In this document: piece by piece, positions 209 through 39,015 of the stretch
Layout: each line of letters begins with the position of its first letter
How positions within the stretch are numbered: the first letter of the stretch is position 1
IMG/VR virus record: IMGVR_UViG_3300045988_136193
Reading direction: 5' to 3' (one strand)
Length of the DNA: 40,887 bases
From: a virus
Position numbers and translations under genes: made by a program
The notes under the pieces: generated by a model
Databases searched by the model: none
The model's input: only the letters and a program-made list of their open reading frames with translations
What the model was told of the DNA's origin: nothing

Positions 209-1459
209 ATGGTTAATAAAGCTACAAAACAAAAAACTAAATTTAAGGGCGTATATTACCGCCAACACCCAACACGTAGAAATGGTGTTCGGTATGATAG
301 ATATTTTATTATCCGTTATTCTATAAACGGTAAACAGCGTGATGAGGGGTATGGTTGGGAATCAGAGGGCTATACTGAAGCTAAAGCCGCCGCCGAAGTG
401 GAAACAATCCGCAATAATATAAAAAACAAAACCGGTTATTTTAGCCTTAAAGAAAAGGTAGAAATTGCCGAGGCAGAAAAGAAAGCCACCGACGCCGCAC
501 TTATTATACAAGAAAGAGAAAATATAACTTACCGGCAATTTTATGAGAACATATACAAACCAAGCTATATTGATAAAAATAAACCAAAAGAGGGGAAAGT
601 TGGCGCACATATAAATCATATATTACCAGTTATTGGCAATATGCGCCTGATTGATATTAAGCCGATACACCTTGAAACAATTAAAGCTAATATGACAGCT
701 GCCGGACGCGCTCCAGCAAGTGTTAATAAAGTGCTTGTATATATAAGTCACGTATTTAATATGGCTAAAAATAATGATTATTTTGCAGGTGATAATCCTG
801 TTTCAAAAGTAAAAAAAATAAAGATAGATAATAGACGCATACGTTTTTTATCCAAAGAGGAGGCGGCAAAACTCTTTGAAAGGTTAAGCAAAATGGAAAA
901 GCCTACTGTTTTTGATATGTCTTTACTTGCTCTGTGTTGTGGTTTGCGTGCTGGCGAGATTTTTAAATTACAAGCGGTAGATATAAACTTTAGTATTCGT
1001 CGCCTTTATGTTCGTGATCCAAAGGGTGTAGTTAATAGGGCTTTACCTTTGCCACAAATTGTGTTTGATATGTTGCGCCGCCGGTGCGCCGGATTAAAGC
1101 CCGATGATTATTTATTTATGAAAACAGACGGTTCAAAGCATATAAATAGTGTCTCAGACCAGTACCAGCGTATAGCAGATAGTCTTTTTAATCAAAATAT
1201 TACAGACAGCCGCAATAAAGTAGTATTTCATACATTACGCCACACCTTTGCCTCTTGGCTTGCAATGGACGGCGTGGATATTAACACTATTAGTGAGCTG
1301 ATGGGACACGCCACACTTGAGATGACAAAGCGTTATATGCACCTTGCCCCTAACAAATTTGACAGCGCTGTAACGTGTTTAGAAAATCCATTATCAATGG
1401 AAAATATCAGCGGCACACTTACTCATTCAGCCACACAACCACAATCAAAAGAGTTTTGA
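209..1459 (+). CDS. int: Tyrosine recombinase / phage integrase
   Basis: The C-terminal catalytic region reads HTLRHTFASWLAMDGVDINTISELMGHATLEMTKRYMHL, giving the R..H..R..Y signature. The gene sits next to the att repeat. Confidence 0.95.
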   Translation: MVNKATKQKTKFKGVYYRQHPTRRNGVRYDRYFIIRYSINGKQRDEGYGWESEGYTEAKAAAEVETIRNNIKNKTGYFSLKEKVEIAEAEKKATDAALIIQERENITYRQFYENIYKPSYIDKNKPKEGKVGAHINHILPVIGNMRLIDIKPIHLETIKANMTAAGRAPASVNKVLVYISHVFNMAKNNDYFAGDNPVSKVKKIKIDNRRIRFLSKEEAAKLFERLSKMEKPTVFDMSLLALCCGLRAGEIFKLQAVDINFSIRRLYVRDPKGVVNRALPLPQIVFDMLRRRCAGLKPDDYLFMKTDGSKHINSVSDQYQRIADSLFNQNITDSRNKVVFHTLRHTFASWLAMDGVDINTISELMGHATLEMTKRYMHLAPNKFDSAVTCLENPLSMENISGTLTHSATQPQSKEF

Positions 1460-1635
1460 AAGCTCAGTTTATCCAAGCCAACCACCGCTTTTACCTCAGT
1501 AAAGCATTTACGGCTATAAAATTCACTTTTCTTACCCTTATTAAATTCCGATACAGGGCGGTGATACCCCATTACGCGTGTCCATATTTCGCATTTTTGC
1601 CGTTCTTCATCTTTTAATTCTATGTTATTTGCCAT
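1423..1635 (-). CDS. Small (about 70 aa) NrdD-like glycyl-radical-domain protein
   Basis: The motif TRVMGYHRPVSEFNKGKKSEFYSR resembles the RVCGY....WNxGKxxE...R glycyl-radical loop at the C-terminus of class III ribonucleotide reductase. An ATG at 1635 follows a GGAGGT RBS. The 1662 start in the ORF track is probably an N-terminal extension. Confidence 0.55.
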   Translation of the reverse strand: MANNIELKDEERQKCEIWTRVMGYHRPVSEFNKGKKSEFYSRKCFTEVKAVVGLDKLSFQNSFDCGCVAE

Positions 1636-2958: not shown

Positions 2959-3129
2959 TTAATCAATACATTTTATTTTGTTATAATCAGCAAGCGTGAT
3001 GTATTTACCAACACAAGCCGCCAACTCACTATCAGATAAATAACCCATTTCATAAAGGCGCGCTATACTTTTGGCTATCTTACAACCCTTGACAATAGCC
3101 AAAACAGCGGTGTCAAATTCGGTGTTCAT
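2959..3129 (-). CDS. Small hypothetical protein (56 aa), below the ORF-track cutoff
   Basis: An ATG-to-TAA ORF (MNTEFDTAVLAIVKGCKIAKSIARLYEMGYLSDSELAACVGKYITLADYNKIKCID) fills the gap between the endolysin and the RT-downstream ORF. No homology was recognised. Confidence 0.25.
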   Translation of the reverse strand: MNTEFDTAVLAIVKGCKIAKSIARLYEMGYLSDSELAACVGKYITLADYNKIKCID

Positions 3130-3412
3130 CTTCCGGTGCGTCCTTTAATTCAGCTTCAAGTTTGCGAATTTCTTGGCGGCGTTCGTCAGCTGTCTGTTCT
3201 ATAACCTCGTATTTGTCAAACATTGGCAAATCAACATCCGGGAACAGTTCACGGAATTTTCGCGCCAATTCCCAAGTAACTTTCCTTGCTGAATAATCGT
3301 ATGCGGCTAATTCTTGATGACAAGCATTTAACCGACATTCAATTTCAGATTTTGTTTTCTTTTTTCCATCCATAGTTTTGTTTCCTTTCCAAATAAACGG
3401 CGCATATTCCAA
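3113..3412 (-). CDS. Hypothetical protein downstream of the DGR RT, possibly a DGR accessory. The start may be Met14 at 3373.
   Basis: An ORF overlaps the 3' end of the RT gene. It is charged and helical. No family was recognised. Confidence 0.3.
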   Translation of the reverse strand: MEYAPFIWKGNKTMDGKKKTKSEIECRLNACHQELAAYDYSARKVTWELARKFRELFPDVDLPMFDKYEVIEQTADERRQEIRKLEAELKDAPEDEHRI

Positions 3413-4533
3413 ACAGTCCGCCGGGCGTTGCGCCGTAACATTGAGCCTGCCCAGCTTTCAAACGATTGTTGAAGTTCTTTTGCGCCTATCTTTCCGGCTC
3501 TCCACAATCGTATTTGTTTCTTAACCTTTCGGCGTTCTCTTGTAATGTTGCGCCGATAAGGTTTTTTGATGATTTTTCCTTTATCCGTAAAATGAAAAAC
3601 TGTTTTTAAGTATTTGAAACAGTTTCTTAAATTAACAATTTTTGTTTTATTCGGGGATAAGGTTATTTTTAATTTTTCGCAAAAACGCTTTATAATGGCT
3701 ATTGCTTTTAATAAAAGTTTTTTATCTTTGGCAATTATATAGCTGTCGTCCATATACCGACCAAAGAAAATACCGTGTCCGATACATTCAGCAATAGCGT
3801 GGTCTATAACGTTCGGGAAAATTATAGCGTGCATTTGCGAGGTTTCAGAGCCAAGCCCCAGTCCTTTATCTCCGTAAGCGTCAACAAGGTCATCAATCAA
3901 TTTTAAAAGCCTTTTATCCTTAAAATATTTACGATAAAGAGCCTTTAAGGCTGGGTGGTCTATGTTTTCAAAATATCCTTTATAGTCCACCAACAGGATA
4001 TAACCGTTGTTTCCATACTTATTGAAGTGCCTTGTTAAATGCTTGATTAACCGATTTTGAGAAAATATAACACCTTTTCCTTTTTGACTTGCGCCGTTGT
4101 CATAAACAAGCGACCGCGTATAAACCGGATATAAAACATTTTTGCATAAAGCCTTTTGCACGATTCGTTCATAAAAACGCACCGCTGAAATATGGCGTAT
4201 TTTGCCGCGTTCGCAAATCGTAAATTTTGAAAAACCTTTTCTAATATCTTTTCCGTCCGTCATATCCCGATAAAGTCTTTCGGTGTTTAACAGCTGATGA
4301 ATACTCCAACTTTGGACGCTGGACTTCCATAAAACATTCTTCTTAGCTAAATCAGCGGCTTCAAATAAATTTATGCGATTGCATACGTTTGCATAATTAT
4401 CATATTTTTCTAAAAACAATTTGCGCCGTTTTATTCTTTTTGCTAAACGGCGTTCAAATCTTTTACTTCGTCTTGTCATAAAATACCTTAAAAAAATAAA
4501 CTTTGCGAGGCACCGAACGGAATTATACCACAT
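3328..4533 (-). CDS. Reverse transcriptase, diversity-generating retroelement type
   Basis: RT motifs are present: YILLVDYKGYFENIDH, LGLGSETSQ (the DGR-specific [ILV]GxxxSQ) and FFGRYMDDSYII (YxDD). The likely start is the ATG at 4479 after an AAGG RBS. The gene is adjacent to the TR. Confidence 0.9.
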   Translation of the reverse strand: MWYNSVRCLAKFIFLRYFMTRRSKRFERRLAKRIKRRKLFLEKYDNYANVCNRINLFEAADLAKKNVLWKSSVQSWSIHQLLNTERLYRDMTDGKDIRKGFSKFTICERGKIRHISAVRFYERIVQKALCKNVLYPVYTRSLVYDNGASQKGKGVIFSQNRLIKHLTRHFNKYGNNGYILLVDYKGYFENIDHPALKALYRKYFKDKRLLKLIDDLVDAYGDKGLGLGSETSQMHAIIFPNVIDHAIAECIGHGIFFGRYMDDSYIIAKDKKLLLKAIAIIKRFCEKLKITLSPNKTKIVNLRNCFKYLKTVFHFTDKGKIIKKPYRRNITRERRKVKKQIRLWRAGKIGAKELQQSFESWAGSMLRRNARRTVWNMRRLFGKETKLWMEKRKQNLKLNVG

Positions 4534-4725
4534 ACTGCCACAACATAAAACAAGCGTCCGTCCGCGTTTTTCTTGCTATGCACTCTCAATTTTTGAGGGC
4601 GACCGTTGTTCAGCGTCAAAGTTCCTATTCGTTTCTAATGAAAACAGGTTTAACGTTCCTTCCTCTTAAATGCACGGTGTTCGGCTGTTTCCAGCTTACT
4701 AAGACAGGCTTTAAGAAATTTTTTA

Positions 4726-4852
4726 GGAATCAGAGCGGCGCACGAATCCAAGTGTTGGACGTATTGTTAGTGTTAGAAATACCGTTGCCGTTGACATTGC
4801 CAGCGATTGCAGAAGTACCACCGGACACAGAGCAGAGCCACCAGTTCACACG
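4726..4852 (-). repeat. DGR template repeat (TR), noncoding, between avd and RT
   Basis: This 127-bp repeat is homologous to 5359-5485. All 12 differences are plus-strand T in the TR, which is A on the coding minus strand, versus A/G/C in the VR. No non-adenine substitutions occur. Confidence 0.9.
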
Positions 4853-4881
4853 CGCGCAGATACAACATTAAACCTTATTGT

Positions 4882-5289
4882 TTACGCGGAAATAATCTTC
4901 GCATTTTGGCTTGCGCCCTTAATAAGATTTATTTCATCAAACAACAAACTTGTTATTTGTTTCAAATTTTCCGCATTAACGCTTTGTATAGTCCGCACCA
5001 TACAAAGCATTTTATTTTCCAGTTGATAGCAGTTAATTAGTGCTTGTTGCAAATATTTCTTGCGAAGTGTTAATTTTTCTTCCGTATTCGGAAATATTGT
5101 GTTTGAGGCAACAACATTATCTAATAACTCACTAACTTTTAAAATAGCGTCTTGAGCTAACATATAACGCCATTTTTTGGGGACGTGGTTGTCATTCATT
5201 AAATATTGGATAACCGCAACTTGTAGTTTTTGAGCCGTAACTATATATTGAAGTTTTGTTGTTTTACGGTCTTTTGCATATACTGACAT
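4882..5289 (-). CDS. avd: Avd-like accessory variability determinant
   Basis: The protein is 135 aa, basic and helical. It sits between the target gene/VR and the TR/RT in the canonical DGR order VR-avd-TR-RT. Confidence 0.6.
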   Translation of the reverse strand: MSVYAKDRKTTKLQYIVTAQKLQVAVIQYLMNDNHVPKKWRYMLAQDAILKVSELLDNVVASNTIFPNTEEKLTLRKKYLQQALINCYQLENKMLCMVRTIQSVNAENLKQITSLLFDEINLIKGASQNAKIISA

Positions 5290-5313
5290 TTTTTAGTAAC
5301 CTTTAAAAGAATA

Positions 5314-5337
5314 GCGGTCGGGATAATACCCGACCGC
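5314..5337 (-). promoter_or_regulatory. GC-rich hairpin immediately downstream of the VR, a DGR homing hairpin/cruciform candidate
   Basis: A perfect 9-bp inverted repeat gcggtcggg/cccgaccgc with a 6-nt loop lies about 20 bp 3' of the VR end, in the avd-target intergenic space. Confidence 0.6.
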
Positions 5338-5347
5338 CGTTTTAGTG

Positions 5348-6391
5348 TTAAGCGATATGGAAGCAGAGCGGCGCACGAATCCAAGTGTTGGACGTAATGG
5401 TAGTGTCAGAAATACCGTCGCCGGTGACACCGCCAGCGACCGCAGAAGCACCACCGGACACAGAGCAGAGCCACCAGTACACACGACCAAACAATAACCG
5501 CCCACGATAACCGGCAGATTTAAATAGCGGCCATTGACACCACGGACCATAATTTTCGCATTGTGGAAATGTTGACTTTACCGAATGAATCATTCCGCCG
5601 TATGCTTCAATTTCAGACGGCGCAAAAATAAGCCCACGTCCTACCCACGCTTGCCCGTTATCATCATTCAATGCGGCAGTTGCAGAATAACGTATTCCCA
5701 TATGCACGCGCTGTTCTACCATACGCGAGCGCAATTTAGAACTGAATAGTTGATAATATCCAGCACCGGCGGCATTATAGCCGCAAGCCCCGACAGGATT
5801 TGAGCTTGCATTGTTTACGCCGTTCAATACCGCATAAAGTTTACTCGCAATCCACGGGTGCGAAGAATACGCCGAACCGTTGTTATTGTTGGTATCATTC
5901 CACGTTACATTCTCATCAGCCAATGAAAAACAGGTAAAATGATGAGGCATTTCCGTGTCGCCAGTTCCATAATAAAGGTCAATACCGGCAATATAAATCT
6001 TTTTATTTTTGGCGGCAATAGCATTTCCGGCAACCGTTCCGGCAGACATACTGTCATAAAAATAGTCCCCCGGATAAATACCGGCAAAGTTATTTGTTGC
6101 CGCGCGTGCGTGCAACCAATCGGCAACATTGCCATATTTAGCAATTTCCGCGGCAAATTTTTCTTGCAGGTTTACACCATCATAAATCCCTTGAGCTATT
6201 TTTTGAGCTATTTTCGCCTCAGATTGCAAGCCCAATAAAGAATTATACTTAGTAACACCGTCTCCTATTTTAATTTCCCCGGTGTCTGTTTCATAAAAAA
6301 ATTCGCCTAAACGCAAAACCTCGTTTTGTGATTTTGCCGCCGCACTAGAGCTTTGACGTACTCTAATGCGTCTTGTAATTACATCAGTCAT
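5348..6391 (-). CDS. DGR target: distal tail fiber / receptor-binding protein with a C-terminal variable region
   Basis: The N-terminus has the motif LGEFFYETDTGEIKIGDGVTKYNSL, common in phage tail-fiber N-termini. The C-terminal ~42 residues are encoded by the VR. Confidence 0.8.
   Translation of the reverse strand: MTDVITRRIRVRQSSSAAAKSQNEVLRLGEFFYETDTGEIKIGDGVTKYNSLLGLQSEAKIAQKIAQGIYDGVNLQEKFAAEIAKYGNVADWLHARAATNNFAGIYPGDYFYDSMSAGTVAGNAIAAKNKKIYIAGIDLYYGTGDTEMPHHFTCFSLADENVTWNDTNNNNGSAYSSHPWIASKLYAVLNGVNNASSNPVGACGYNAAGAGYYQLFSSKLRSRMVEQRVHMGIRYSATAALNDDNGQAWVGRGLIFAPSEIEAYGGMIHSVKSTFPQCENYGPWCQWPLFKSAGYRGRLLFGRVYWWLCSVSGGASAVAGGVTGDGISDTTITSNTWIRAPLCFHIA
5359..5485 (-). repeat. DGR variable repeat (VR) at the 3' end of the distal tail-fiber gene
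   Basis: The sequence matches the TR except at 12 TR-adenine positions. It encodes the last ~42 residues of the 347-aa protein. Confidence 0.9.
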
Positions 6392-6418
6392 AGTTTATAT
6401 CCTCTATTAAAATTTAAG

Positions 6419-7678
6419 TTAAATAACTCCACCAACTATTTCATCGGTAGTTGAATCATCAGGAGTACCGCCAAAAATTTCAGCATAGCCAAGCAATTCC
6501 TCAGCCTCAGCAAGAGCATTATATGTGTTTGACTCGCTGGTTGCCGCCGCGGTTGCACTCTTTGCCGCCGCGGTTGCACTTGCGTCAACAAGTGTTTGTT
6601 TTTCCGCCGCGTTCGTATTAAAATCTGCGAGTTTTCCAGCTGTATAAGCGTCAATTTTTGGTTCAATAGTATTGGAAACATAGTTATTGATATTGGTCTT
6701 CACCGTACTATTCACATAACTTTCAATACTAGGCTTTGTTGTGTTATTCACATACGCAACAATATTGGGCTTTGTTGTTCTTTCTATGTAACTGTCTATT
6801 TGCCCTTGCGTGGTATTTACAACATAATTATCAATATTTATTTGTGCCGCCTCTGTAACAGTTGCCTCCGCAGTCTCTAGCACCTCTTTCGCCGCCGCAA
6901 TAGCCGCCGCCTCCACATCTTCTGTTGCTTGTGTAATAGCGCTTTGAATATTTGCCTCCGCAGTTTCAACAGTTTGCGAAACACTTGCCTCAGCCGCACT
7001 AACAGCATTATTTACCTCAGCAATAGCTGTATCTTTTGTGTTATTGATTGCTGTTGTAGCCGACGTTTTTGTTTCGTTAATTTCGTTTTTTGCGGCATTA
7101 ACATAAGCTGTAACCTCAATAAGCGTTTTCTCCGCGCTTTCAACTGCCGCGGTTGCATTATCGGCGGCAGTTGTAGCCTCGTTTGCCGCCGCTATTGCTT
7201 GCCCAGCCACTTCGGTTGCACTATCTAGCTTGCTATAAACTTCCTTTAACAAATCCTCAGGAGTTTGATTGCCGGAAATAGTAACCTTTAAACAGCGATC
7301 AATAATTTCTTGATGTTGCTTTAGTATAGCCGTTATTTTATCAAAAGCGGTTTCTATTGATTCAGACGGCAAGCGTCCAAATTCTTTATAATCTGTAAGT
7401 TGTTCAATCGGTATATTATATATAATTGTCAGCTTATACCCAGACAAAGGCGCAACAAGCATTGTCAGTGTGCCATTAACCACGCCAGCGTCAGTAATTG
7501 TAAAGTCGGTATTTTCCCTCTTTACAACTTCATTTTTGCCGTCAGCGTCAGCCAACACAACTTTAATCTGCTTTGTGCCATCATCATTTGCGAAATAAAT
7601 AAACGGCACCGGGAAATTAACCGTTACACCATCGCCAGTATAAACAGCCCTTACAGGCATACTTGCAGGTATAGTCAT
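6419..7678 (-). CDS. Tail fiber protein with a T7 gp17-like N-terminal tail-attachment domain
   Basis: The N-terminus reads VYTGDGVTVNFPVPFIYF. An Ala-rich coiled shaft follows, then tandem ~13-aa repeats (xYVxNTxxPxIxx). Confidence 0.7.
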   Translation of the reverse strand: MTIPASMPVRAVYTGDGVTVNFPVPFIYFANDDGTKQIKVVLADADGKNEVVKRENTDFTITDAGVVNGTLTMLVAPLSGYKLTIIYNIPIEQLTDYKEFGRLPSESIETAFDKITAILKQHQEIIDRCLKVTISGNQTPEDLLKEVYSKLDSATEVAGQAIAAANEATTAADNATAAVESAEKTLIEVTAYVNAAKNEINETKTSATTAINNTKDTAIAEVNNAVSAAEASVSQTVETAEANIQSAITQATEDVEAAAIAAAKEVLETAEATVTEAAQINIDNYVVNTTQGQIDSYIERTTKPNIVAYVNNTTKPSIESYVNSTVKTNINNYVSNTIEPKIDAYTAGKLADFNTNAAEKQTLVDASATAAAKSATAAATSESNTYNALAEAEELLGYAEIFGGTPDDSTTDEIVGGVI

Positions 7679-7760
7679 TATATCTTTCCTTTTCTAAAAG
7701 AGTTGAAATAAAAAAAGAGCGGCAAGTTGCCTTAACCGCTTAACCCAAAACATAATAATA

Positions 7761-7786
7761 AAAGGCGGTGTACCACCACCGCCTTT
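7761..7786 (-). terminator. Rho-independent terminator after the giant gene
   Basis: A 10-bp stem aaaggcggtg/caccgccttt with a 6-nt loop is followed on the minus strand by a U-rich tract (ttattattatgtttt). Confidence 0.6.
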
Positions 7787-10700
7787 ATTCATCATCAGAA
7801 TCCCTTAATGAATACGGACTCCAGCCAAGCCACAACAATAACTCTTTGCCATATTCGCCCTCGTCGGCGTATTCACCGGCATTTTCCGCAACATCTTTGG
7901 CATATTTAAGCGGCAAGCCGGTAACTTCACCAATAGGCTTAATAACGTCTAACACGTCCTCAAGATCCATTTCGTCATCAGCGAACTTTAGTAAATCGTT
8001 TTTTAAATCCTCTATTGAACCCCAAAACGGCACTAAATCGCGCACAGACATACGTGTTGTGAACATATTACTGTTGTCCGTTATCCAGTTATAAACGTTT
8101 TCAAGCACTTTGTTGAGAATAAACCAACCATTGAGCGAACCAAGAACAGCGGCGCGCAAGTCATTATCTTTGTCCCATCTAAAGCCATCACTCACAACTT
8201 GAAAGAATACCGGCAATAAAACGTGATATATAAATATTGTTTTTGCCGCTTTAGCTTTACTCATTCTACCTGTTGCCAAACCGCGTATTGCGTTAATTTC
8301 CTTACGTAAATACTGGTTTTGCGAGCTGGTGAACATCGTAAATGCACGCAGTGCCGAGTTGCTTTGCATATAGCTTTGTTGGCTCAAGCGTCCAGATTGT
8401 TGCGTTTCGTCCGTTATCCGCTCAAAAGCCTCAAGCGCTTTGGTTTTCGCCTCTTTTTCACTCATACCGGCTTTCAAGTTTTTATTCAATTCAGACTTAT
8501 AGAGCGCCCAGCCACCCATATAAATTGCGCCTCTATCGCCAAACTTAATGTTAAACATCAGCAAATCATTCCATTTGATTTTGCCTTTTGCCTTTTTCAT
8601 TTTAGCAAATAGATTGCTTTTACTTATTTGATCGAAGTCGCGGATAATATCCGTGTCGCGCGTTTTCATTAAAGTTGTGCCGCCAAGCGTCCGCATAGCC
8701 TCTTTCGGGTGTGCAAAAAAGTCAGCCACACCGGCAATAAAATCCTTTGTGCTTACATTTTCCCAATAAGCAGGGAAAGAGGTAAGCTGTTTTATTGCCA
8801 AACTAGGTTTAACTGCCAGCACCGACTTAGCGTAATTTGCGCGCACTTTATTCCACCTTTTACCCCAAACGTCAACTTTATCATTGCCATTGTTGGCAAG
8901 GTTGTCAATTTCATAAGCTATGCGTTTATTCATTTCTGCCCCAAACAAAGAATTTATGATGCCTTTAACATCCTTATTTGCCAGTACAGCGTTAATATCG
9001 GTCAGTTTATCCATATAGCCCATATAATGATTTTGCTGGTTAATATATTTATTCAAAGCCCTGAATGCACCTTGAATATTGATAACACCAGTACCGGCAA
9101 CCGCCACTCTTTTCTTAGCGCCGCTAAAGCTAGCGTAGCCGTGTGTGGTTTTATCGTCAATCGTTACACCGTCAACGCTCATTGCACGTGGTGTGTAATA
9201 CTTTGACTTAGGCAGGCTCATACCGAAATGTTCTTCATAAAAGGCATTAAACCGCTCATAATTTTCATTATAAAACTCAAATATAGCGTCAGCCACCGCC
9301 AAATCATCAGTGGTTAATTCGTCTTTAACCTTATTTAAGAACGCTTTATTGTATTGATTGACAGGATCGTTAATCATAATCTCACGCGTGTCATCATCCA
9401 AAGACTTCATATAAATATCTATAAGTTGGTCTTTGGTAAACGTGCGCTTGAACGGTTGCCATTTTTGATATTTTGGATTCCGTTCTTTTGGATCAATTAA
9501 GCCGCTCCATTCAATCACAATCTTTTTATCCAACTCAGTGTTCATATAGTGTGTAACACTTTGCGCGTTGTTCATTGTGCCGGATAAAAACTTTTCCAGT
9601 TTTTGGCTGATAAGCTCACTATCTGCCGCAATTCCGGCATATTTCTTTTGTTCTGCCTCAAACATATCTAAATCATCTGATAACGCAGATTTTCCAGTTT
9701 GCGAACGTTTATCATTCATAGAAAGCGTATCAAGTAAGCCGCCCCAGCTTTGCTGTGTCAAGCCAAAACGCGCCAACCGTTTCTTGATTTCCGAGCTTTC
9801 AATGTTCGGATTGATTGCGCCATAGTTGGTTAAAACATTTTTAGCGCGCTCAATCATTTGTTTTTTGCGTTCACGCTTTGCATCGCCGGTGATTTTATCA
9901 GTCAGCCGCCCCATATTGTAGCTTTCAGCCAAGCCGTCATACAGCTTTAAGAGTTCATTGTTGCTAATTTTGCCTAAGTTATAAGAGAGTAGGCGGTTTT
10001 CAAAAATCAGCTGTTCAATATCAACATCACCGCCGGATTTCATTTGTTCCTCAATCAAATCAACGTTTTCTTGTAGTTTTTGCTTAGCCTCATCTTTGTT
10101 CATTGTCGCCAATTCACGATAACGAGCAAAAGCGTCATTAAGCCCTTTGCTTGGAAAACGTCCAACAAGTTTGCCGCCGTTTGTACGCGGTTCACTCCAT
10201 TTAAGCAGTTTTTCAACTCTAGCTTTGACCTTATCACGGTTAAAGTTTAAGCCGTCCAGTTGATTGCGTAAAACAGTATAGTCCCATTCAGTCAACACCT
10301 CTCTGTTATTCTTAGCCGGTTTGTTTTCAAACTCTTTTAGAGCCTCCACAAACTCTTTATTTTTCATACCGTTACGGAGTTTTTGAATAAGGTTTTGCAT
10401 ATCCGCCTTACTCATTTTGCCCTCATAAAGCATTTGCATAGCACGGTTGGTTTGCCATTGTGAGATATTGCCGCGCTCCAGCATTTGCCCCATTTTAAGC
10501 GTGCTTGCTTGCATAGCAAAATCTAAGCCTTTACCGCCCAGCATTTCATCAAAGGTTGCACGCACTTCGTCCGTAACCTTAATACCACTCAGGCGCTTTA
10601 CCTCATACCAAAGACTACTAATCCACTTCTTAAAGCGAGCAAATGCACCCTTTAAAATTTGGTTAGGCGTACGCCCATCGAGCAAATAAACCTCAAACGT

Positions 10701-13700
10701 ATCAGCAAACTTTTCTTCTTGTTCACGTGTCAGCGTGCCGTTTTCAACCCCAAGATATTTATAAATTTCAGCCAACTGTTCAGCCGTCTTTGGATTATCA
10801 GCAAATTTTTGCATATCGTGTAAAAAGAAGTGTCCGAGTTCGTGAATAACCGTTGACGCGTCCGCGTTTTCAAAGGCAAAAATAATGTTTTCATCGCCGC
10901 GTTCAACAAACGCCCCACGCGGAGAAACACCATCTCCGGTTGTTTTTTGATATAGCCGATAATTATTTTCAGGATCAACTTCTATTGTCTTAAATAATCT
11001 ATCAAATGCGGCATCTATATTTGCACGTTCCATTTCATCTGCAGGATAGATCGGCAGCATATAATCGTCCATATTTACTGTTTCACCAGATTTTTCAGCT
11101 CTCCCCAAAGCCGTTAAATACTCGTTTACATCTAAGATACTAAGTTTTGCATGCCCATCCAAAAAGTAATTAAACCAACCATTGGACGCAATTTTATCAT
11201 TTATATAGCTTGCAAAAGCTCTTGCCCCCAATTCTGTTTGCTTTGTCCAATATCCTTTTCTATCTTTAGTTGCTCTGTTTAGCTTATTAGCAGTATCATA
11301 GTATTTACTAACTTTGCGCCAAGAACTAGTACTTTCATCTAAAGTGCCTAGTTGCTTTAATTTATATTGTAAATCAAAAAATATTGCGGCCAAGTCCGCT
11401 GTGCGGCGGCGTTCCTCAATCATATCTTGGAAGTCATTTAGATATTGTTTGCTTTTACTACTGTCATAATTTTTTCCCATTGCCACTAAATTATCAATAA
11501 ACTTATTGATTTCCGCCGAATTTTTTGCTTTTTCAAACTTTGTTTTTATTTCATTGGCACGATAGTCAATAATGCGTTTTATGTGTGAAACTTGGGCTTT
11601 ATATCGGCTTTCAACTTCTGCATCAGACATATCTGCTGTTGAAATTTGGTTATAAAGATTGCGAATAGCATCGTATGTTTCTGAGCGCAAATTTCCTTGT
11701 TTTTCTAGTTCTAGGGAGGGTGTACCACTAAAGTCTTTTCCCAAAGACTGATCGCCAAAATAATAATCTAAAGCGTGCCACCATTCATGAGCTAATGAAC
11801 CGGCACCATTTTTGCGAGTAAGGTTTATTTCATTAAATTCTGGTATAAAATGCCCAGCAGTACCGGCACGACCTTGCGCACCAAATGCAAGCCCCAATTT
11901 CCCCTCTAATCCTATTGCTTTAGGTGGTATTCCCAATATTTCAGTCATATCCAGTAAGCTATCATAAGTTAAATTCAAAAATTCTTGCCGTTCTGATTGC
12001 TTAGTCCAATTTCCAAAATTGATTCCTCTAAAGCCAAATGTTTCCATTAAAGCCCCTGGATTAACATTTTGATTGTTTTGCCGGCGAGGCAATCCTTTAC
12101 GCATGCCAGAAAATTCAACAGTTTCTCCTTGTCCTTTAAGGTATGGCTTAACCAATTCATAAGCATTTTTTGCAAATTCAGCCGCTTTTTCTTCTGTGCT
12201 AAAATTTAAATCACGTGAAATTGATTTACCATTGTTATCAACAACAAACCAACCATCTTGGTATGCTTTTTTAACAACCATAAAATATTTTTGCCATGCC
12301 TCTTCAGCAGTTTTTGTTTTTTCCTTATCTTTGGGAGCTTTTTCAAAATCTTCAACAATAGAGTCAAGTTTAGTCAAATCATAGCCGGTTAGCATCATTG
12401 AGCTTATAAATTTATTGCCACCGGCGACCAACGCTTCGGCATTGTATTCTTTATTTTCTCTAAATATGCGGTTAGGAATTTTTTCTTCACTTGGAAAGAC
12501 ATTGTTCAGAATATCATAATTTATCCCCATATCTTCACGCCATGCGGCAATATCATCTTTATGTGTTTTGGCATATTCAATGGTTTTATCCATTGTTCTA
12601 TGTACAATATCATAAAAACGTTTGGAGTTTTGCAATGTATCATTGACATTTTTAGCTGGTTTTGCATTGATTGAGTTATAAACATAAATAACCAAAGCGG
12701 CAGCTCTGCCATTAACCCCCTGAACTTGCAATTTTTCAATGCTTGGTTTCGGATAAATATAATTTTTAGTAAGGTATTTATGGCGCAAAAGATCATTCAT
12801 TCCCTCTAATTCCGCCCAATTATACACTTTAGTATTGTGTTTAAGATTGCCTAACAAACTATCTCCGGTATCTTCAATTTGTTTTTTAGGTTTATATTCT
12901 TGTTCTATTTTTTTATTTTCACTTTTAGTGCTGAATAATGGCAGTTCTTTAGTTACACCATCTTGTTTTTCTGCATAAGAAAATAAATCATCAACTTGTT
13001 TTCTCACAGAAATAGGCAAAGGTTTTGCCTCATTGTTTATAGGATTTGCAAATAAATCACCGGTCAAATTATCGTTTTTACTACGTTGATAATATATATT
13101 AGGGTTATTAACATCAAAATGGCCACTATTATTTACAGATTTTATTTGATTAGGCTCAAACGCTCCATATATATTATATTTTGGAATAATTAAACCATTA
13201 TATCCTGCTTGTTGCATTTTTTCAGAAAAAAACTCTGGATTTTCAGACCTATATCCAAGAACATACTTTGCCCAGGAATCATTGACCCCTATGTCTTTTT
13301 TTGGCAAAAAACTTTTACCCAAAATGTCTTCAAGTTGCAAAGCACCCGCTTTATTTTTTAACACAAATGGATTTTTTAATTGTAGGTATACTGGCATAGA
13401 AACACTATAGCCTTTTTGCTTTATCCACTCATCCCCTTTACCAAAATAGAACATTTGCCCCCAATAACTTCCTTTTCCTATTTTGCTCTTATCAAAAGTA
13501 TCAAACTCTGCATTTGTTCCGTGATACACAACAAGCGGTCTACCCTGTTTATCAACAACTTTGCTATCACCAAACCATTCATAAAAGGCGCGCAAACCCT
13601 CCGCGGTTTTTGCTATACGATTGCCGTTACTGTTGGTTGCCCACCGGTCAACACCATTTATACTTATCTTTTCGTCTATATAAGTGTTGACAAAATCAAT

Positions 13701-16700
13701 TAAATCATCTATAATAACATCATTACCGCTGTTGTTTGCGACTGTCGCTTTCGCGCCTGCCGCGAAGTTCCCCAGGGAATTTCCAGCGGTATTTGTTTTA
13801 CCAACTTTTAAATCATAAGCGGCAAGGTTTTTATCATTATTTCCCTCAATTTCTACATCAGTTAAATCTTTGCGCCCACCGGATAATTCTTTTACCGTAA
13901 TTTTTACAATATAAGTTTCAGCCGGCGAATCGTTGTCTTTTTGAGATTGTATAACATTTGCGTAACGATGTATCTTGTTTTTAGAGCCGTGTTTTTCGTC
14001 ATTATGCGTTTTAACCAGTATCGCACTATCAAATATATCAGCAATATTAGCAATGCACTCTTTGCCTAATATACCGCCAACATTACCGCCAAGCCGGTTG
14101 CTTGTTGACTTAAACATTTTGCTAAGCGCATTTTTAGATAAAGTAACTGTTTCACCTCTCGCGCTGTTTTTCAAAACACGCGCGCCGTTAGCGTTTCTCT
14201 TAACCTTAGTGTCCAGCGCGGCAACAACATCATCAAGGCTAATATCTTTGCTTTCGGCACGTTTAGCAAAAAAGCGGTTAATTTTAACCGCTTTTACTTT
14301 TTCGTTTTCTCTACCTTTGAGTTCAGGGTTTATATCCTTGCGCTCATATTCCAGCTTTTCCGCGTCAATTTTGCTTATCTTATCCGTCAAATCCTTAGCC
14401 TCTTGAAACAACGTAAAATCATCATCAATACTAACATCGTTTGCATTTGTCTCAGATTCATACTGTTTAGCATTCTTACTGTATTCCTCAGCCGCTTTGT
14501 TATAAGCCGCCTCAGCCTCCTCAGCACTCATACCTCTATAATCCACGCCAAGCATATCCATTTGTTCGGCAAGACTGTTGACATATTCAGTCATAGAAAA
14601 AGGGTTACCATCTTGGTATTGATAGTGTTTTTCACCAAACAGCTCAGTGCTTATTGCCTCCAATAAATCATTTATGGTTGGACGTTCAGAGTAAGAGGGG
14701 AAATATCCGTTTTCCCAAGCCGCCAGCGCAATATCATCAAAGCTATTGCCGGTTTTATTATTGATAAGCCCAATACGTTGTTTTTTTGCATCCATATTTT
14801 TTAACTCACCGCCAACATCTTTCAGTCCACCGCGCTTAATAATAAATGTAATCAAGCTGTCGCCTTTGTTTTCCTTTTCAATTTTAGCAATCTTGTTATA
14901 CAGCCTATCATCGACCAAAGCCTCAAACGGATTAACATTTTGCGGATTGATTCGCTTAGATTTTTTAACGTTTTCTACTTCTTCTTTAAAGTTCAAAACG
15001 CCCATAATGGTTTGCACGCGCTTGTTAATAGCCTTAACAGATTCCTCAGCGCCTTTTGTTTCAAACCATTTTTTTGCCATTTCAGCGTTGAAATTTGCCT
15101 TATTCAAATCACCATAGCGCGCACGAGCGGCAATACCTTTGCGTAACGCTTTTTTCTGTTCCGATGTCCAGTTTTCCGGCACAACACTCATAATGTCATC
15201 AATTTGTCGTTGACGCAGGGCATAGTTATCCGTAACCGGCACACCTCTCGAAAAGTCCTCATAGCTTTGCCGTGTCAGATTCAAATTCCAGCGCTTACGT
15301 ACCTCCTCCGTGCTAACACCCTCAGCCCTAGCAATCGCAACAGCACGCGCCGCCAAAACGCGCGCCGCATTATCAGTAATCGCGCGATCATAACCGGCAA
15401 CGTCCATTTTATCAAAGTATTCATTATAAGTTTCATTAAAGCCATTACGCGCGTCAATATAGTTTGCGGCAATATCAATGGTTTTGTTAATATCCTCATC
15501 ACTCATACCGTATTTTTCTTTAAGCATAGCACGTGTATCAGCAGTCAGACTTTCAGCAGTCAAACCGTCCGGCATAACATCAATCTCAGATTCTTTGCGT
15601 AACAGATTTGTAATTTGTTCGTCATAAGCCGCGCCCTGTTGCAACAAAGCATCTTGCACATTGTCAGCTACAACTTGCAATTCTTCATTAGTTAATTCCG
15701 GCGTATTTTCTTTCAAAATGTTCTTAATTGCCGTATTATCTTTGGTAATTTTTTGGTTATATATGCTTGTGCCTATACCGCCCATACCGGCACCGGGAAC
15801 AGCACCGGCGGCAAAAGCAAACAAACTTTGGCTTAAAATCTCGTCCATACTGTAACTGGAAACATCATTATAGTTTTCCCACAGCATACCAGCGCCCTCT
15901 TGCATAAATTCCTCGCCGCCCTCAGTAACAGCGCCTTTAACCGCCGCGCCGAAAATGCTTTGAGGGTGTCGGGAGGCAATTTTACCGATAGCCGAGCGTC
16001 CGACTTTGCTTTTTAAGGTTTTAGCAATAGACGAGTTAATAACTTTATTGCCGAGCTGTTGAATAGGTTTCACCTTACCAATACCGAGCAAAAGCCTATC
16101 ACCCACAAATTCAAGTCCGCCCTCAATCGCACCGGCAACCGTAGCGTCCGTGCTTGCGTCATTTGCGCTTTCACCGGCGGCAACTGCCTTGTCAAAATAC
16201 TCAGTATCTTTAAGTGCCGCATAGGTTGTGCCTATTGCCGCCGCGGCAACAGTTGGGTTTTTTGTAGCTAAAGCCACCGCCGCCGCCTCCGCAGTGCTTA
16301 CAATACCGCTACTTGCGGCAATAAAAAACTTGTCGGCATTATCCAGCTTTTCATCAGGACGCATAATTTGTGCGCCTTTGTTGAAAAACTTTTGCGCGCG
16401 TTCTCTTAGATTTTGGATATAGGCAATTTTTTCCTTTTGCCGACGGATAATATTTTGCTTTTCTTCATCGCTAAATTCTTTATCACCAAAAAAGCTCCAA
16501 TCGCCATTTTCCCAATCCTCAACAAGTTTCATACGCTTTTGGTATCTCAAGCCCTTATCAAGCACAAGAGAATCCACTAATTGCCCAGTGTGTTCAACAG
16601 CTGCGCGGTTAAAGTCTTGAAAAACTTCCTCTATGGATTCGCCCGCAATTTGTGTGCCTGTCCACACCTTACCAAAGAAAGAGTCTTTATTTTTGCCGCC

Positions 16701-16880
16701 GTGTTGCGTATCAATCGCAAATTTAGCGTCAGTTGCGTCCATTCCGAGCGGCACATTATACATTTGTTGGGTTTCAGCGTCCATAACAGATTGAGTCATA
16801 GGCTCACTATTCTCAATTTCCCATCGCGGTTGAACAGCTTTATTGTCCGTTGTAACTGTATTTTCAATTTCCCAAGCCAT
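7785..16880 (-). CDS. Giant 3031-aa virion/ejection-associated polyvalent protein
   Basis: A single uninterrupted ORF of 9.1 kb. The motif VVYHGTNAEFDTFD...SYWGQMFYF...YGAFEP suggests an H-Y-E class ADP-ribosyltransferase-like domain. LAHEWWHALDYY and VIHELGHFF are two HExxH zincin motifs. Its position matches the T7 gp16 internal-core protein slot. Its start is translationally coupled (TAATG) to the upstream gene. Confidence 0.85.
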   Translation of the reverse strand: MAWEIENTVTTDNKAVQPRWEIENSEPMTQSVMDAETQQMYNVPLGMDATDAKFAIDTQHGGKNKDSFFGKVWTGTQIAGESIEEVFQDFNRAAVEHTGQLVDSLVLDKGLRYQKRMKLVEDWENGDWSFFGDKEFSDEEKQNIIRRQKEKIAYIQNLRERAQKFFNKGAQIMRPDEKLDNADKFFIAASSGIVSTAEAAAVALATKNPTVAAAAIGTTYAALKDTEYFDKAVAAGESANDASTDATVAGAIEGGLEFVGDRLLLGIGKVKPIQQLGNKVINSSIAKTLKSKVGRSAIGKIASRHPQSIFGAAVKGAVTEGGEEFMQEGAGMLWENYNDVSSYSMDEILSQSLFAFAAGAVPGAGMGGIGTSIYNQKITKDNTAIKNILKENTPELTNEELQVVADNVQDALLQQGAAYDEQITNLLRKESEIDVMPDGLTAESLTADTRAMLKEKYGMSDEDINKTIDIAANYIDARNGFNETYNEYFDKMDVAGYDRAITDNAARVLAARAVAIARAEGVSTEEVRKRWNLNLTRQSYEDFSRGVPVTDNYALRQRQIDDIMSVVPENWTSEQKKALRKGIAARARYGDLNKANFNAEMAKKWFETKGAEESVKAINKRVQTIMGVLNFKEEVENVKKSKRINPQNVNPFEALVDDRLYNKIAKIEKENKGDSLITFIIKRGGLKDVGGELKNMDAKKQRIGLINNKTGNSFDDIALAAWENGYFPSYSERPTINDLLEAISTELFGEKHYQYQDGNPFSMTEYVNSLAEQMDMLGVDYRGMSAEEAEAAYNKAAEEYSKNAKQYESETNANDVSIDDDFTLFQEAKDLTDKISKIDAEKLEYERKDINPELKGRENEKVKAVKINRFFAKRAESKDISLDDVVAALDTKVKRNANGARVLKNSARGETVTLSKNALSKMFKSTSNRLGGNVGGILGKECIANIADIFDSAILVKTHNDEKHGSKNKIHRYANVIQSQKDNDSPAETYIVKITVKELSGGRKDLTDVEIEGNNDKNLAAYDLKVGKTNTAGNSLGNFAAGAKATVANNSGNDVIIDDLIDFVNTYIDEKISINGVDRWATNSNGNRIAKTAEGLRAFYEWFGDSKVVDKQGRPLVVYHGTNAEFDTFDKSKIGKGSYWGQMFYFGKGDEWIKQKGYSVSMPVYLQLKNPFVLKNKAGALQLEDILGKSFLPKKDIGVNDSWAKYVLGYRSENPEFFSEKMQQAGYNGLIIPKYNIYGAFEPNQIKSVNNSGHFDVNNPNIYYQRSKNDNLTGDLFANPINNEAKPLPISVRKQVDDLFSYAEKQDGVTKELPLFSTKSENKKIEQEYKPKKQIEDTGDSLLGNLKHNTKVYNWAELEGMNDLLRHKYLTKNYIYPKPSIEKLQVQGVNGRAAALVIYVYNSINAKPAKNVNDTLQNSKRFYDIVHRTMDKTIEYAKTHKDDIAAWREDMGINYDILNNVFPSEEKIPNRIFRENKEYNAEALVAGGNKFISSMMLTGYDLTKLDSIVEDFEKAPKDKEKTKTAEEAWQKYFMVVKKAYQDGWFVVDNNGKSISRDLNFSTEEKAAEFAKNAYELVKPYLKGQGETVEFSGMRKGLPRRQNNQNVNPGALMETFGFRGINFGNWTKQSERQEFLNLTYDSLLDMTEILGIPPKAIGLEGKLGLAFGAQGRAGTAGHFIPEFNEINLTRKNGAGSLAHEWWHALDYYFGDQSLGKDFSGTPSLELEKQGNLRSETYDAIRNLYNQISTADMSDAEVESRYKAQVSHIKRIIDYRANEIKTKFEKAKNSAEINKFIDNLVAMGKNYDSSKSKQYLNDFQDMIEERRRTADLAAIFFDLQYKLKQLGTLDESTSSWRKVSKYYDTANKLNRATKDRKGYWTKQTELGARAFASYINDKIASNGWFNYFLDGHAKLSILDVNEYLTALGRAEKSGETVNMDDYMLPIYPADEMERANIDAAFDRLFKTIEVDPENNYRLYQKTTGDGVSPRGAFVERGDENIIFAFENADASTVIHELGHFFLHDMQKFADNPKTAEQLAEIYKYLGVENGTLTREQEEKFADTFEVYLLDGRTPNQILKGAFARFKKWISSLWYEVKRLSGIKVTDEVRATFDEMLGGKGLDFAMQASTLKMGQMLERGNISQWQTNRAMQMLYEGKMSKADMQNLIQKLRNGMKNKEFVEALKEFENKPAKNNREVLTEWDYTVLRNQLDGLNFNRDKVKARVEKLLKWSEPRTNGGKLVGRFPSKGLNDAFARYRELATMNKDEAKQKLQENVDLIEEQMKSGGDVDIEQLIFENRLLSYNLGKISNNELLKLYDGLAESYNMGRLTDKITGDAKRERKKQMIERAKNVLTNYGAINPNIESSEIKKRLARFGLTQQSWGGLLDTLSMNDKRSQTGKSALSDDLDMFEAEQKKYAGIAADSELISQKLEKFLSGTMNNAQSVTHYMNTELDKKIVIEWSGLIDPKERNPKYQKWQPFKRTFTKDQLIDIYMKSLDDDTREIMINDPVNQYNKAFLNKVKDELTTDDLAVADAIFEFYNENYERFNAFYEEHFGMSLPKSKYYTPRAMSVDGVTIDDKTTHGYASFSGAKKRVAVAGTGVINIQGAFRALNKYINQQNHYMGYMDKLTDINAVLANKDVKGIINSLFGAEMNKRIAYEIDNLANNGNDKVDVWGKRWNKVRANYAKSVLAVKPSLAIKQLTSFPAYWENVSTKDFIAGVADFFAHPKEAMRTLGGTTLMKTRDTDIIRDFDQISKSNLFAKMKKAKGKIKWNDLLMFNIKFGDRGAIYMGGWALYKSELNKNLKAGMSEKEAKTKALEAFERITDETQQSGRLSQQSYMQSNSALRAFTMFTSSQNQYLRKEINAIRGLATGRMSKAKAAKTIFIYHVLLPVFFQVVSDGFRWDKDNDLRAAVLGSLNGWFILNKVLENVYNWITDNSNMFTTRMSVRDLVPFWGSIEDLKNDLLKFADDEMDLEDVLDVIKPIGEVTGLPLKYAKDVAENAGEYADEGEYGKELLLWLGWSPYSLRDSDDE

Positions 16881-31548: not shown

Positions 31549-32319
31549 TTATAAGTTAAGACAACCTTGCGCGGCGTTTGGCTTGCCGTGCTTTGTATTA
31601 AATTCATTAAGCCGATTGCGGATTATTTCCGCATATTTCGGCTCTTTTTCCATAACAATAAACCGCCGCCCCAAATTGCGCGCCGCCACCGCGGTTGTGC
31701 CGGAGCCTGAGAACGGATCTAAAATTAAATCGCCTTTGTTGGTATAATACTCAATAAATGGATACATTGCCTTTAGCGGTTTTTGTGTTGGGTGTTCTGT
31801 TCTCTCATTTCCGCTACATACAGGCAACATAATATAATTCGGCTGTTGTCCGTTTTGATAATTAAACGTCAGCTTTCCGTCCGGTTTTTGCAACATAACC
31901 GCAACCTCCCAGCCGTTTTGAAATTTCACCTTGCGCGCTTGCGGCGCAGGATTTTGTTTTATAAATGCAAAATATCCTTTACATTTAAATCCATATTCAT
32001 TTTGCAAATAGTGAGATAAAAAGTTAATTCTATCCACATCAAAAAAGGCAACGAGCATACCCCCCCCTCTTAATTTTGGCACGCATAAATCAACCCACCG
32101 CTTTGTAAAATCCATAAAATCATCAAATCCGGCAAACTTATCCCATTGTCCAAAATCGTGTGTAATCGCTTTGGCTTTGCCATATTTTTGCCCGTTGCCG
32201 TTACGGATTATTTTTGTATCGTTGGCAATTCCATACGGCGGATCGGTCAGTATCATATCAACCGAGCCGTCCGCCACGTTACCTAACAATTTGAAACAAT
32301 CCCCCTCCAAAATGCACAT
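31549..32319 (-). CDS. DNA methyltransferase, N6-adenine/N4-cytosine type, beta-class (orphan)
   Basis: Motif IV MILTDPPYG precedes motif I LILDPFSGSGTT. The ATG at 32319 has an AAGGA RBS. No restriction partner was found. Confidence 0.85.
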   Translation of the reverse strand: MCILEGDCFKLLGNVADGSVDMILTDPPYGIANDTKIIRNGNGQKYGKAKAITHDFGQWDKFAGFDDFMDFTKRWVDLCVPKLRGGGMLVAFFDVDRINFLSHYLQNEYGFKCKGYFAFIKQNPAPQARKVKFQNGWEVAVMLQKPDGKLTFNYQNGQQPNYIMLPVCSGNERTEHPTQKPLKAMYPFIEYYTNKGDLILDPFSGSGTTAVAARNLGRRFIVMEKEPKYAEIIRNRLNEFNTKHGKPNAAQGCLNL

Positions 32320-32345
32320 TTTTCTTATCCTTGCGGTGGTGTAAG

Positions 32346-32804
32346 TTACATATCTAAAGCCTTGCAATAGGTGTCTGTAACCAATTCTTGCTCTTCGCGG
32401 TCGGCGACATTCATTTTACGTAGTTTCAAAACAACGCGCATAATTTTAACATCAAAACCGGCACTCTTAGCCTCAGCGAAAACATCGCGTATATCATTAC
32501 TTACATCTTTCTTTTCTTCCTCTAGGCGCTCAATACGCTCAATCAGACTACGCAATCTATCTTTGGCAATACCACCAACCTCAGTGTCTTTTTCTTTAAC
32601 GCAATCCATCACCGGCTCATTTTCCGGTTCAGGTTCTCTGCCCAGCACCTTGCCAACTCTTGTTTCGCTATATTTGCTATCATTTTCCATAGTCTTTTGT
32701 TCCTTTTGATATTCAAATTGATTTACAATGTCCGTAGGCACACCAAATGTAGCGGCCAACGCCTCTGCCTTTTCACGTGTGCAATTCATTTTCTTTTTGT
32801 GCAT
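32346..32804 (-). CDS. GapR-like (DUF2312) nucleoid-associated DNA-binding protein with an N-terminal extension
   Basis: The C-terminal ~75 aa read LRSLIERIERLEEEKKDVSNDIRDVFAEAKSAGFDVKIMRVVLKLRKMNVADREEQELVTDTYCKAL. This aligns with the GapR/DUF2312 pattern (IE.LEEEKK.i..dirD.yAEAK..GF.vK..R.....RK). Confidence 0.6.
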   Translation of the reverse strand: MHKKKMNCTREKAEALAATFGVPTDIVNQFEYQKEQKTMENDSKYSETRVGKVLGREPEPENEPVMDCVKEKDTEVGGIAKDRLRSLIERIERLEEEKKDVSNDIRDVFAEAKSAGFDVKIMRVVLKLRKMNVADREEQELVTDTYCKALDM

Positions 32805-38490: not shown

Positions 38491-38538
38491 TGAGTAAAAA
38501 TGATTTTATAGATGAACTCAATAAAAGGAGCAGAGCCG

Positions 38539-39015
38539 ATGACTAAAGAAATCCTTGACGCTTGTTGCGGTGCCAAAATGTTCTATTTTAACAAAGACAA
38601 TCCTAACGTTTTATTTATGGATAAGCGCCTGATTGATACTTTTTTATGTGATGGGCGTAGGTTTGAAATCAAGCCGGATATTATAGGTGATTTTAAGAAT
38701 ATGCCTTTTTCAGATGAAAGTTTTAGCCTTGTTGTTTTCGATCCACCGCACTTACACAAAGTTGGTGATAACAGTTGGTTAGCCATAAAATACGGAAAAC
38801 TACAAGACGATTGGCAAAACGAATTGAAACAAGGTTTTAATGAGTGTTGGCGTGTCCTTAAAAAAGGCGGTACTCTTTTATTCAAATGGAATGAAACAGA
38901 TATACCGGTGAAAAAAATAATTGATTTATTCGGTGTTGAACCTTTGCTTTTTAATAAAAGGGATAAAACGCACTGGATTGTATATTTTAAGGGGGGGGAA
39001 AGTAATAATGGCTAA
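38539..39015 (+). CDS. Small phage Dam-like DNA methyltransferase (about 158 aa)
   Basis: The N-terminus has ILDACCGAKMF. The motif VVFDPPHL is the (D/N)PP(Y/F/H) motif IV. WRVLKKGGTLLF is also present. The ATG at 38539 follows an AAAGGAG RBS. Confidence 0.55.
   Translation: MTKEILDACCGAKMFYFNKDNPNVLFMDKRLIDTFLCDGRRFEIKPDIIGDFKNMPFSDESFSLVVFDPPHLHKVGDNSWLAIKYGKLQDDWQNELKQGFNECWRVLKKGGTLLFKWNETDIPVKKIIDLFGVEPLLFNKRDKTHWIVYFKGGESNNG

Follow-up and report, generated by a model that had tools for sequence, protein, structure and literature searches.

The virus record IMGVR_UViG_3300045988_136193 (IMG/VR) raises the question of whether a pair of near-identical repeats, lying close to a reverse transcriptase (RT) gene, is part of a diversity-generating retroelement (DGR) that is complete and still at work. 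The record, 40,887 nucleotides that were analysed as one stretch and are termed the window below, had been predicted from its letters to carry such an element on the minus strand, in the order target gene with a C-terminal variable repeat (VR), hairpin, avd, template repeat (TR) and RT. Every one of these parts is present in the canonical order between 3328 and 6391, and we consider it about 95% probable that they make up a complete, currently active BPP-1-type DGR in a phage that encodes an integrase and whose portal and tail resemble those of T7 and BPP-1. All six of the defining features of a DGR that are fully testable by computation were found: TR/VR differences confined to TR adenines; a VR at the 3′ end of the target open reading frame (ORF), as part of a C-type-lectin-type fold; one-way TR-to-VR transfer, with a variable VR and an invariant TR; an RT of the DGR clade with [ILV]GxxxSQ and YxDD, assigned by these motifs and its nearest relatives rather than by a formal phylogeny; an accessory protein of the Avd or HRDC type; and structured RNA flanking the TR, for which a cis-priming role is suggested by analogy.

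The repeat search gave one strong direct pair in the region, 127 nt long and 91% identical, which consists of an intergenic TR (4726-4852) and a VR (5359-5485). Both are read on the minus strand, the coding strand for every gene of the cassette. When the two copies were tabulated independently, the 12 differences originally counted were recovered, and each one is a plus-strand T in the TR, and hence an A on the coding strand, opposite G, A or C (plus strand) in the VR. The sites, given as TR/VR positions, are 4730/5363, 4764/5397, 4767/5400, 4774/5407, 4786/5419, 4791/5424, 4797/5430, 4798/5431, 4807/5440, 4808/5441, 4816/5449 and 4846/5479. With 25 T among the 127 bases of the TR, the hypergeometric probability that 12 of 12 mismatches fall on T is 2.4e-10. 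The same adenine pattern is seen in all related loci with a TR/VR pair (10-19 mismatches per pair, at most one of them at a non-adenine base; individual loci are designated by L numbers below). A BLAST search with the TR across the whole 40.9-kb window returned the TR itself and the VR (E 5e-45) and nothing else, that is, no second VR or third copy of the repeat.

One of the 12 sites qualifies the proposal that all of them arose by mutagenic homing. At 4730/5363 the TR reads TGA and the VR TGC, and the same A/C difference is fixed in 10 of 10 loci of this phage family. Because it is identical in all relatives, this position is read as a marker that distinguishes the initiation of mutagenic homing (IMH) site of the VR from its TR counterpart (IMH*), probably lying 3′ of the site of cDNA initiation, and not as a sampled mutation.

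In the target ORF of 347 codons (5348-6391, minus strand), the VR occupies codons 303-344 in frame, at the C-terminus as expected. Eight AAY codons account for 16 of the 25 TR adenines, in keeping with the predominance of such codons noted at first, and 23 of the 25 fall in the first or second position of a codon. However the adenines of the TR-derived codons are substituted, no stop codon can arise, and the eight AAY codons together with seven A-containing Ile/Thr codons give the VR a coding capacity of 15^8 x 4^7, or ~4e13 protein variants.

The 347-residue target protein was modelled with confidence (predicted local distance difference test score, pLDDT, 90). Of the two folds suggested beforehand for its C-terminus, C-type lectin or FGE, the model returned the former: the VR-bearing C-terminal body matches C-type-lectin-like domains (CTLDs), including that of the DGR variable protein TvpA, and is not close to that of Mtd in sequence or structure. 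For the top structural match, the authors report an N-terminal domain with a CTLD core (PMC12237041). The first ~55 residues of the target form an adaptor that is probably of the Mtd_N/HylP-N type; the profile of the target family matches the HylP N-terminus, and the homologue P0029 scores 29.5 bits with Mtd_N (PF18454), above the Pfam cut-off. Immediately upstream is a gene for a tail-fibre protein of 419 residues (6419-7678, minus strand) that matches the phrog_1640 tail protein family over residues 10-121 (E 2e-24) and consists of a tail-attachment N-domain followed by an Ala-rich coiled coil. This protein is likely to be the proximal fibre. Its N-domain is 25% identical to the N-terminus of 551-residue homologues in which fibre and VR body are fused, and this fusion supports a distal-fibre role for the target. 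We infer that the target forms the distal part of the fibre, where its diversification would switch the tropism of the phage.

There is a small chance that the diversified protein is instead an enzyme, or a surface or defence protein expressed by the lysogen, and that the DGR does not serve tropism switching. In its favour, an NCBI record names one member of the target cluster 'hyaluronidase', and long host contigs carry integrated copies of the prophage that differ in their VRs, so that diversification may take place in lysogens. The label is accounted for by the Mtd_N/HylP-N adaptor domain at the N-terminus, and the fusion of a fibre N-domain to the VR body in the 551-residue homologues speaks for the fibre tip.

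Two further observations concern the fibre. In a sister family (P0058-P0086, 551-552 residues), the C-terminal body with the VR is the one seen here but is fused to a coiled coil and an N-terminal domain of a tail fibre, with a sub-threshold match to Pfam DUF6273; what is split into fibre and tip in the window is a single gene in the phages that encode it. In addition, the part of the fibre gene that encodes the Ala-rich coiled coil contains a perfect 19-nt repeat with 21-nt spacing (TTGCCGCCGCGGTTGCACT, 6541-6580). The fibres of relatives are 390, 412 and 419 residues long, and the repeat is likely a site of in-frame variation in fibre length.

Evidence of activity came from relatives of the window. 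Close relatives were reached through exact protein look-ups; a megablast search of positions 3000-8000 against the phage collection gave no match, nor did a search for an exact 41-nt TR pattern in JGI metagenome contigs, and RT-based locus searches of IMG/VR and GTDB genomes returned distant relatives only (30-39% identity). Differences were counted in colinear alignments only, with TR/VR cross-alignments excluded. Over 9,044 nt aligned to L014, a contig from another sample with a neighbouring assembly accession, the window shows nine differences, all of which fall in the VR at TR-adenine positions, and none elsewhere. Hence, diversification of the VR is more recent than any other substitution in the aligned sequence. 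Contigs that are otherwise identical in this way are unusually clean evidence of DGR activity in the wild.

The same picture is obtained with larger sets of relatives, in which VR polymorphism was found, at both protein and DNA level, at the sites where it had been predicted. Among seven close relatives, 23 of the 25 TR-adenine positions vary in the VR, which is hypervariable at these positions only, while the TR is near-invariant and varies at only seven columns. The target cluster at 90% identity comprises 106 distinct sequences, and an identical Avd sequence is present on 63 contigs. In the 13 full-length members of the cluster, the multi-allelic residues are 305, 321, 323, 325, 329, 331, 332 and 335, which correspond to the AAY codons, and residues 315, 318, 327, 336 and 338, encoded by ACT, ATC or ATT, are also variable. 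The direction of copying is shown by L011, L012 and L015, in which non-adenine changes of the TR are present in the VR of the same locus as well, as results from one-way TR-to-VR transfer. Taken as sequence comparisons, these results show that the DGR is active, and has been recently, in natural populations.

A single sequence cannot prove present activity, and many catalogued DGRs vary little, so that the repeat pair might record past mutagenesis by a relic that no longer functions in the prophage. This is very improbable for the present element, since, in 9,044 nt, the window differs from L014 at nothing but nine VR positions, all at TR adenines, all ORFs are intact, and the TR, the RNA that follows it, the IMH-like end and the hairpin (see below) are all conserved.

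The RT gene encodes 383 residues (3328-4479, minus strand), and its product matches RVT_1 (E 1.2e-18), phrog_1423 (E 2.6e-64) and, as its best solved relative, the Bordetella RT bRT (PDB 8ub7_A, E 4.8e-12). Both motifs named in the original prediction were located: LGSETSQ at 3835-3855 (residues 209-215), which is specific to DGR RTs and aligns with IGSLTSQ of bRT, and YMDD at 3745-3756, where RYMDD aligns with RYMDD. The gene had been assigned a start at 4533; the ATG at 4479 is probably the correct one, since gene callers chose the 383-residue start in most related contigs and the RNA described below ends at 4478. In the phage collection the closest RT is that of Roseburia phage Shimadzu (47.7% identity); further relatives are encoded by Faecalibacterium phages, by the archaeal virus ANMV-1 and in five Bordetella records. 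Several of these relatives (Shimadzu, the Faecalibacterium phages and the Bordetella phages) have a documented DGR. The idea that the repeats are an ordinary duplication or gene-conversion tract near the RT of some other retroelement (group II intron, retron or Abi/DRT) can be set aside with near certainty: the NCBIfam matches listed for the RT are to group II, retron and DRT models, and GenBank labels the homologous RTs of FP_Toutatis and phiARM81mr 'retron-type', but the scores (72 versus a cut-off of 300, 36 versus 235 and 28 versus 390, respectively) are three to fourteen times below the family cut-offs, the adenine-only pattern (p = 2e-10) recurs in every relative with a TR/VR pair, the RT has SQ, as does bRT, at the motif position where group II RTs have SP, and neither intron RNA domains nor retron msr/msd were found, the flanking RNA being Rfam RT-2.

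An ORF of 86 codons (3113-3373, minus strand), with a counterpart in L020 (4056-4277), overlaps the stop codon of the RT gene. It shows a weak local match to orf25 of Shimadzu (E 4e-5 over 26 residues, motif ELAAxDYxAxK), which likewise overlaps the RT stop. The ORF might be a further conserved neighbour in this clade of DGRs, or the match might be due to chance.

The avd gene (accessory variability determinant; 4882-5289, minus strand) encodes 135 residues. Modelling of the protein from 25 homologues gave a four-helix bundle (pLDDT 78) that has the Avd fold in structure comparison, and the sequence is 44% identical to the annotated Avd of Shimadzu (E 4e-40), in agreement with the Avd-like assignment made at the outset.

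The interval between TR and RT had been regarded as noncoding sequence and turns out to hold a conserved structured RNA. Positions 4478-4713 (minus strand) match Rfam RT-2 (RF03077) over the full length of the model (positions 1-222 of 222) and score 58.2 bits, above the gathering score of 40. RT-2 occupies the same place between TR and RT in 10 of 14 related loci and in Shimadzu (144.9 bits), and in five diverged copies compensatory changes are found at 20 of 42 predicted pairs. L007 (Eubacteriales) and L008 (Acutalibacteraceae), with RTs ~30% identical to that of the window, do not reach the RT-2 gathering score. Within the RNA, a GNRA-capped stem-loop (4684-4695) is located ~30 nt after the TR. 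The TR is also bracketed by a 12-bp long-range RNA duplex, formed by an upstream arm at 4864-4875 (AGGUUUAAUGUU, minus strand), 12-23 nt upstream of the TR, and a downstream arm in the spacer RNA at 4646-4657 (AACGUUAAACCU, minus strand). Other sequences form the duplex at the same positions elsewhere: AGGUUAUGUACU pairs with AGUGCAUGACCU in L001, and GGGUUAUUUGCU pairs with AGCAAAUAACCC in Shimadzu.

The bRT-Avd-RNA particle contains a cPRT-Stop duplex and an Avd-binding stem-loop, predicted in 207 of 278 DGRs (bioRxiv 10.1101/2023.10.23.563531). By analogy, the bracketing duplex and the GNRA stem-loop may be the counterparts of these two elements, and a covarying duplex around the TR supports the generality of the BPP-1 ribonucleoprotein (RNP) architecture. 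In the paper that described the RT motifs, only RT-10 was tied to a DGR (that of BPP-1), and the other RT motifs were considered possible parts of retrons or DGRs (Weinberg et al. 2017, PMC5737381). In the loci analysed here, RT-2 always occurs inside DGRs with adenine-specific TR/VR pairs, and this orphan Rfam motif thereby gains a role as the spacer RNA of DGRs. An ORF of 122 codons (4503-4871, plus strand) runs antisense across the TR and the RT-2 RNA. One related contig (L009) has it among its called genes, but it is very probably spurious.

The 3′ end of the VR (5359-5377, coding strand CGTGCGCCGCTCTGCTTCC) is GC-rich and IMH-like, and its TR counterpart (4726-4744) reads ...CTGATTCC. This end is conserved in 10 of 10 family loci, including those in which the target protein is only 60-73% identical, and the IMH and IMH* of BPP-1 (PMC3240598) serve as the model for its putative function. 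A GC-rich inverted repeat (5313-5338) with a stem of 9-10 bp and a 6-nt loop follows 20 nt downstream of the end of TR/VR homology. Its stem shows a compensatory T-A to A-T change in L018 and has other sequences at the same place in L019 and L001, and it is a candidate DGR hairpin or cruciform. A match to Rfam PtaRNA1 at 5307-5384 (21 bits versus 47) was dismissed as chance.

Several points weigh against the interpretation developed above. For the 135-residue protein, neither single-sequence nor profile searches returned a significant match in Pfam, NCBIfam or the PDB, the Avd structure in the PDB included; its identification as Avd relies on a model of moderate confidence and on homology to the Shimadzu protein, the four-helix bundle is a widely shared fold, and the Shimadzu homologue is itself an Avd by annotation alone. 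The Mtd_N score of the target, 26.0 bits, is just below the cut-off of 26.3. A few non-adenine changes adjoin mutated adenines in L009, L011 and L015. RNAduplex searches for a priming duplex between the TR 3′ end and the spacer gave inconsistent long-range pairings across relatives, none of them convincing. In BPP-1 the hairpin has an 8-bp stem and a 4-nt GRNA loop and follows the IMH directly (PMC3240598). The inverted repeat originally placed at 5314-5337 is real, but its 6-nt loop and its 20-nt distance from the end of homology depart from this rule, and because it is followed by a T-rich run it may simply be the terminator of the target gene, or be a terminator as well. Finally, cDNA synthesis, homing and receptor switching are, for this element, predictions from sequence.

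We propose that the complete DGR would operate as follows. A transcript that starts no later than the end of avd and extends across the TR and the RT-2 spacer RNA would fold such that the 12-bp duplex brackets the TR. RT and Avd would bind the folded RNA and copy the TR into cDNA, with misincorporation at template adenines, and the cDNA would then replace the VR at the 3′ end of the 347-residue gene, directed by the GC-rich IMH-like end and probably also by the downstream hairpin. Each such event could rewrite the eight AAY and seven A-containing Ile/Thr codons on a C-type-lectin-type domain at the fibre tip, which would allow the phage population to sample new receptor specificities.

The prototype DGR, mtd-avd-TR-brt of BPP-1, shares most of this organization. 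The order is the same (target with C-terminal VR, hairpin, avd, TR, structured spacer and RT), TR-to-VR changes are likewise adenine-specific and concentrated in AAY codons, and in both cases the VR domain is of the lectin type; the N-terminal domain, as in BPP-1, is probably of the Mtd_N type, with a score just below the cut-off in the window. bRT (8ub7) is the best solved relative of the RT, the predicted Avd fold matches, and a duplex that brackets the TR together with a stem-loop after it resembles the arrangement in the bRT-Avd-RNA RNP. The tail protein of the window has distant relatives in Bordetella and BcepC6B podophages. The two elements differ in the spacer RNA (RT-2 here, RT-10 in BPP-1), in the hairpin (a non-GRNA loop at a distance from the homology end), in the single fixed position that separates IMH from IMH* here, and in the host, which is represented here by a gut alphaproteobacterial metagenome-assembled genome (MAG); the window element is not close to Mtd or bRT in sequence.

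The closest annotated isolate is Shimadzu (LR596903.1, orf22-orf24), with 47.7%, 44% and 30% identity in RT, Avd and target, respectively. It has the same cassette order, a TR/VR pair of 129 nt, an RT-2 RNA between TR and RT, and the bracketing duplex, and in gnotobiotic mice mutation of the tail fibre by its DGR has been reported (PMC6563222). In contrast to the window, Shimadzu has a Firmicute host and a baseplate/tail protein of the P2_I family next to the fibre, in place of the T7/BPP-1-type portal and tail, and its target, of 431 residues, matches over only 80% of the query. More distant are the DGRs of the Faecalibacterium phages FP_Brigit, Toutatis, Taranis, Lelie, Roos and Pioen, with RTs 30-35% identical; these and other gut-phage DGRs are found in temperate gut phages and have targets of the tail-fibre type (PMC5883640, PMC11792537). 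In global surveys, the commonest viral class consists of DGRs that act on phage tail proteins whose VR domain is of the lectin type (PMC8144416). The present element is thus no new kind of system but a well-known one in clean form, and it leaves the general understanding of DGRs unchanged. Tens of thousands of DGRs have been catalogued. What it adds is a DGR that is well documented and active in nature, in a prophage whose hosts, gut Alphaproteobacteria, have been little studied and whose tail and portal module is distantly related to that of the prototype DGR phage.

Homologous cassettes are thus present in unrelated backbones and different host phyla: one in a podophage of the T7/BPP-1 type from a gut alphaproteobacterium, the other in a phage of a Firmicute that has a P2_I-family baseplate/tail protein. 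It is quite likely that RT-2 (RF03077) is the template-flanking RNA of a large clade of gut-phage DGRs, and that the cassette, made up of the C-terminal body of the target, Avd, TR, RT-2 RNA and RT, is a module that has been exchanged among phages with unrelated backbones and among host phyla. If this is correct, the 12-bp duplex would be the equivalent, in this clade, of the cPRT-Stop element of BPP-1, and the clade would offer a second natural system for testing how general the bRT-Avd-RNA mechanism is. Among the distant relatives, the L008 contig from an Acutalibacteraceae MAG carries one TR and two VR copies (539-634, 1071-1166 and 1581-1644), with 10 and 12 mismatches, all at adenines, and represents a two-target DGR.

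The gene content of the window supports the original description of the phage as temperate and podovirus-like. A tyrosine integrase is encoded at 209-1459 (plus strand; phrog_1, E 1e-63; PF00589, E 1e-26), and the exact target protein of the window is also encoded on a 437,810-bp contig that has, on the far side of the integrase, MltA, Smr, Tim44-like and SecB genes that presumably belong to the host. Some relatives are located in long host contigs and others form contigs of ~40.5 kb, and the source labels of the MAGs are Alphaproteobacteria. Small and large terminase subunits are present, as are a T7-type portal (PF12236, E 1e-64), a weak T7_gp14 match and tail proteins of phrog_376 and phrog_394, with Burkholderia BcepC6B, Bordetella phages and Pelagibacter podophages as the nearest phage relatives. 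Portal, internal virion and tail proteins of a T7/BPP-1-like podovirus can therefore be recognized from the genes, and in a scan that covered a subset of the ORFs no protein matched a tape-measure or sheath family. The window contains no tRNA gene.

Between the internal-virion and tail genes and the fibre genes is a polyvalent protein of 3,031 residues (7785-16880, minus strand) with ART-PolyVal (ADP-ribosyltransferase), LPD1 and LPD3 domains, in a position that we take to be similar to that of the large ejected proteins of the T7 gp16 type. The polyvalent proteins of relatives have 1,884-2,796 residues and other LPD domains. Two DNA methyltransferase genes lie in the early/regulatory arm, at 31549-32367 (minus strand; phrog_67, E 7e-55) and 38512-39015 (plus strand; phrog_954, E 7e-76). 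Overlapping the integrase gene at its 3′ end is an ORF of 70 codons (1423-1635, minus strand). Its match to NrdD, the anaerobic ribonucleotide reductase (PF13597, 32.4 bits), is confined to the last ~33 positions of the profile and includes a glycyl-radical-type motif (TRVMGYHRPVSEFNKGKKSEF). The ORF is kept in most related phage contigs, including those of ~40.5 kb that resemble free phage genomes, and could encode a phage-borne 'spare-part' glycyl-radical peptide or be a remnant of integration into nrdD.

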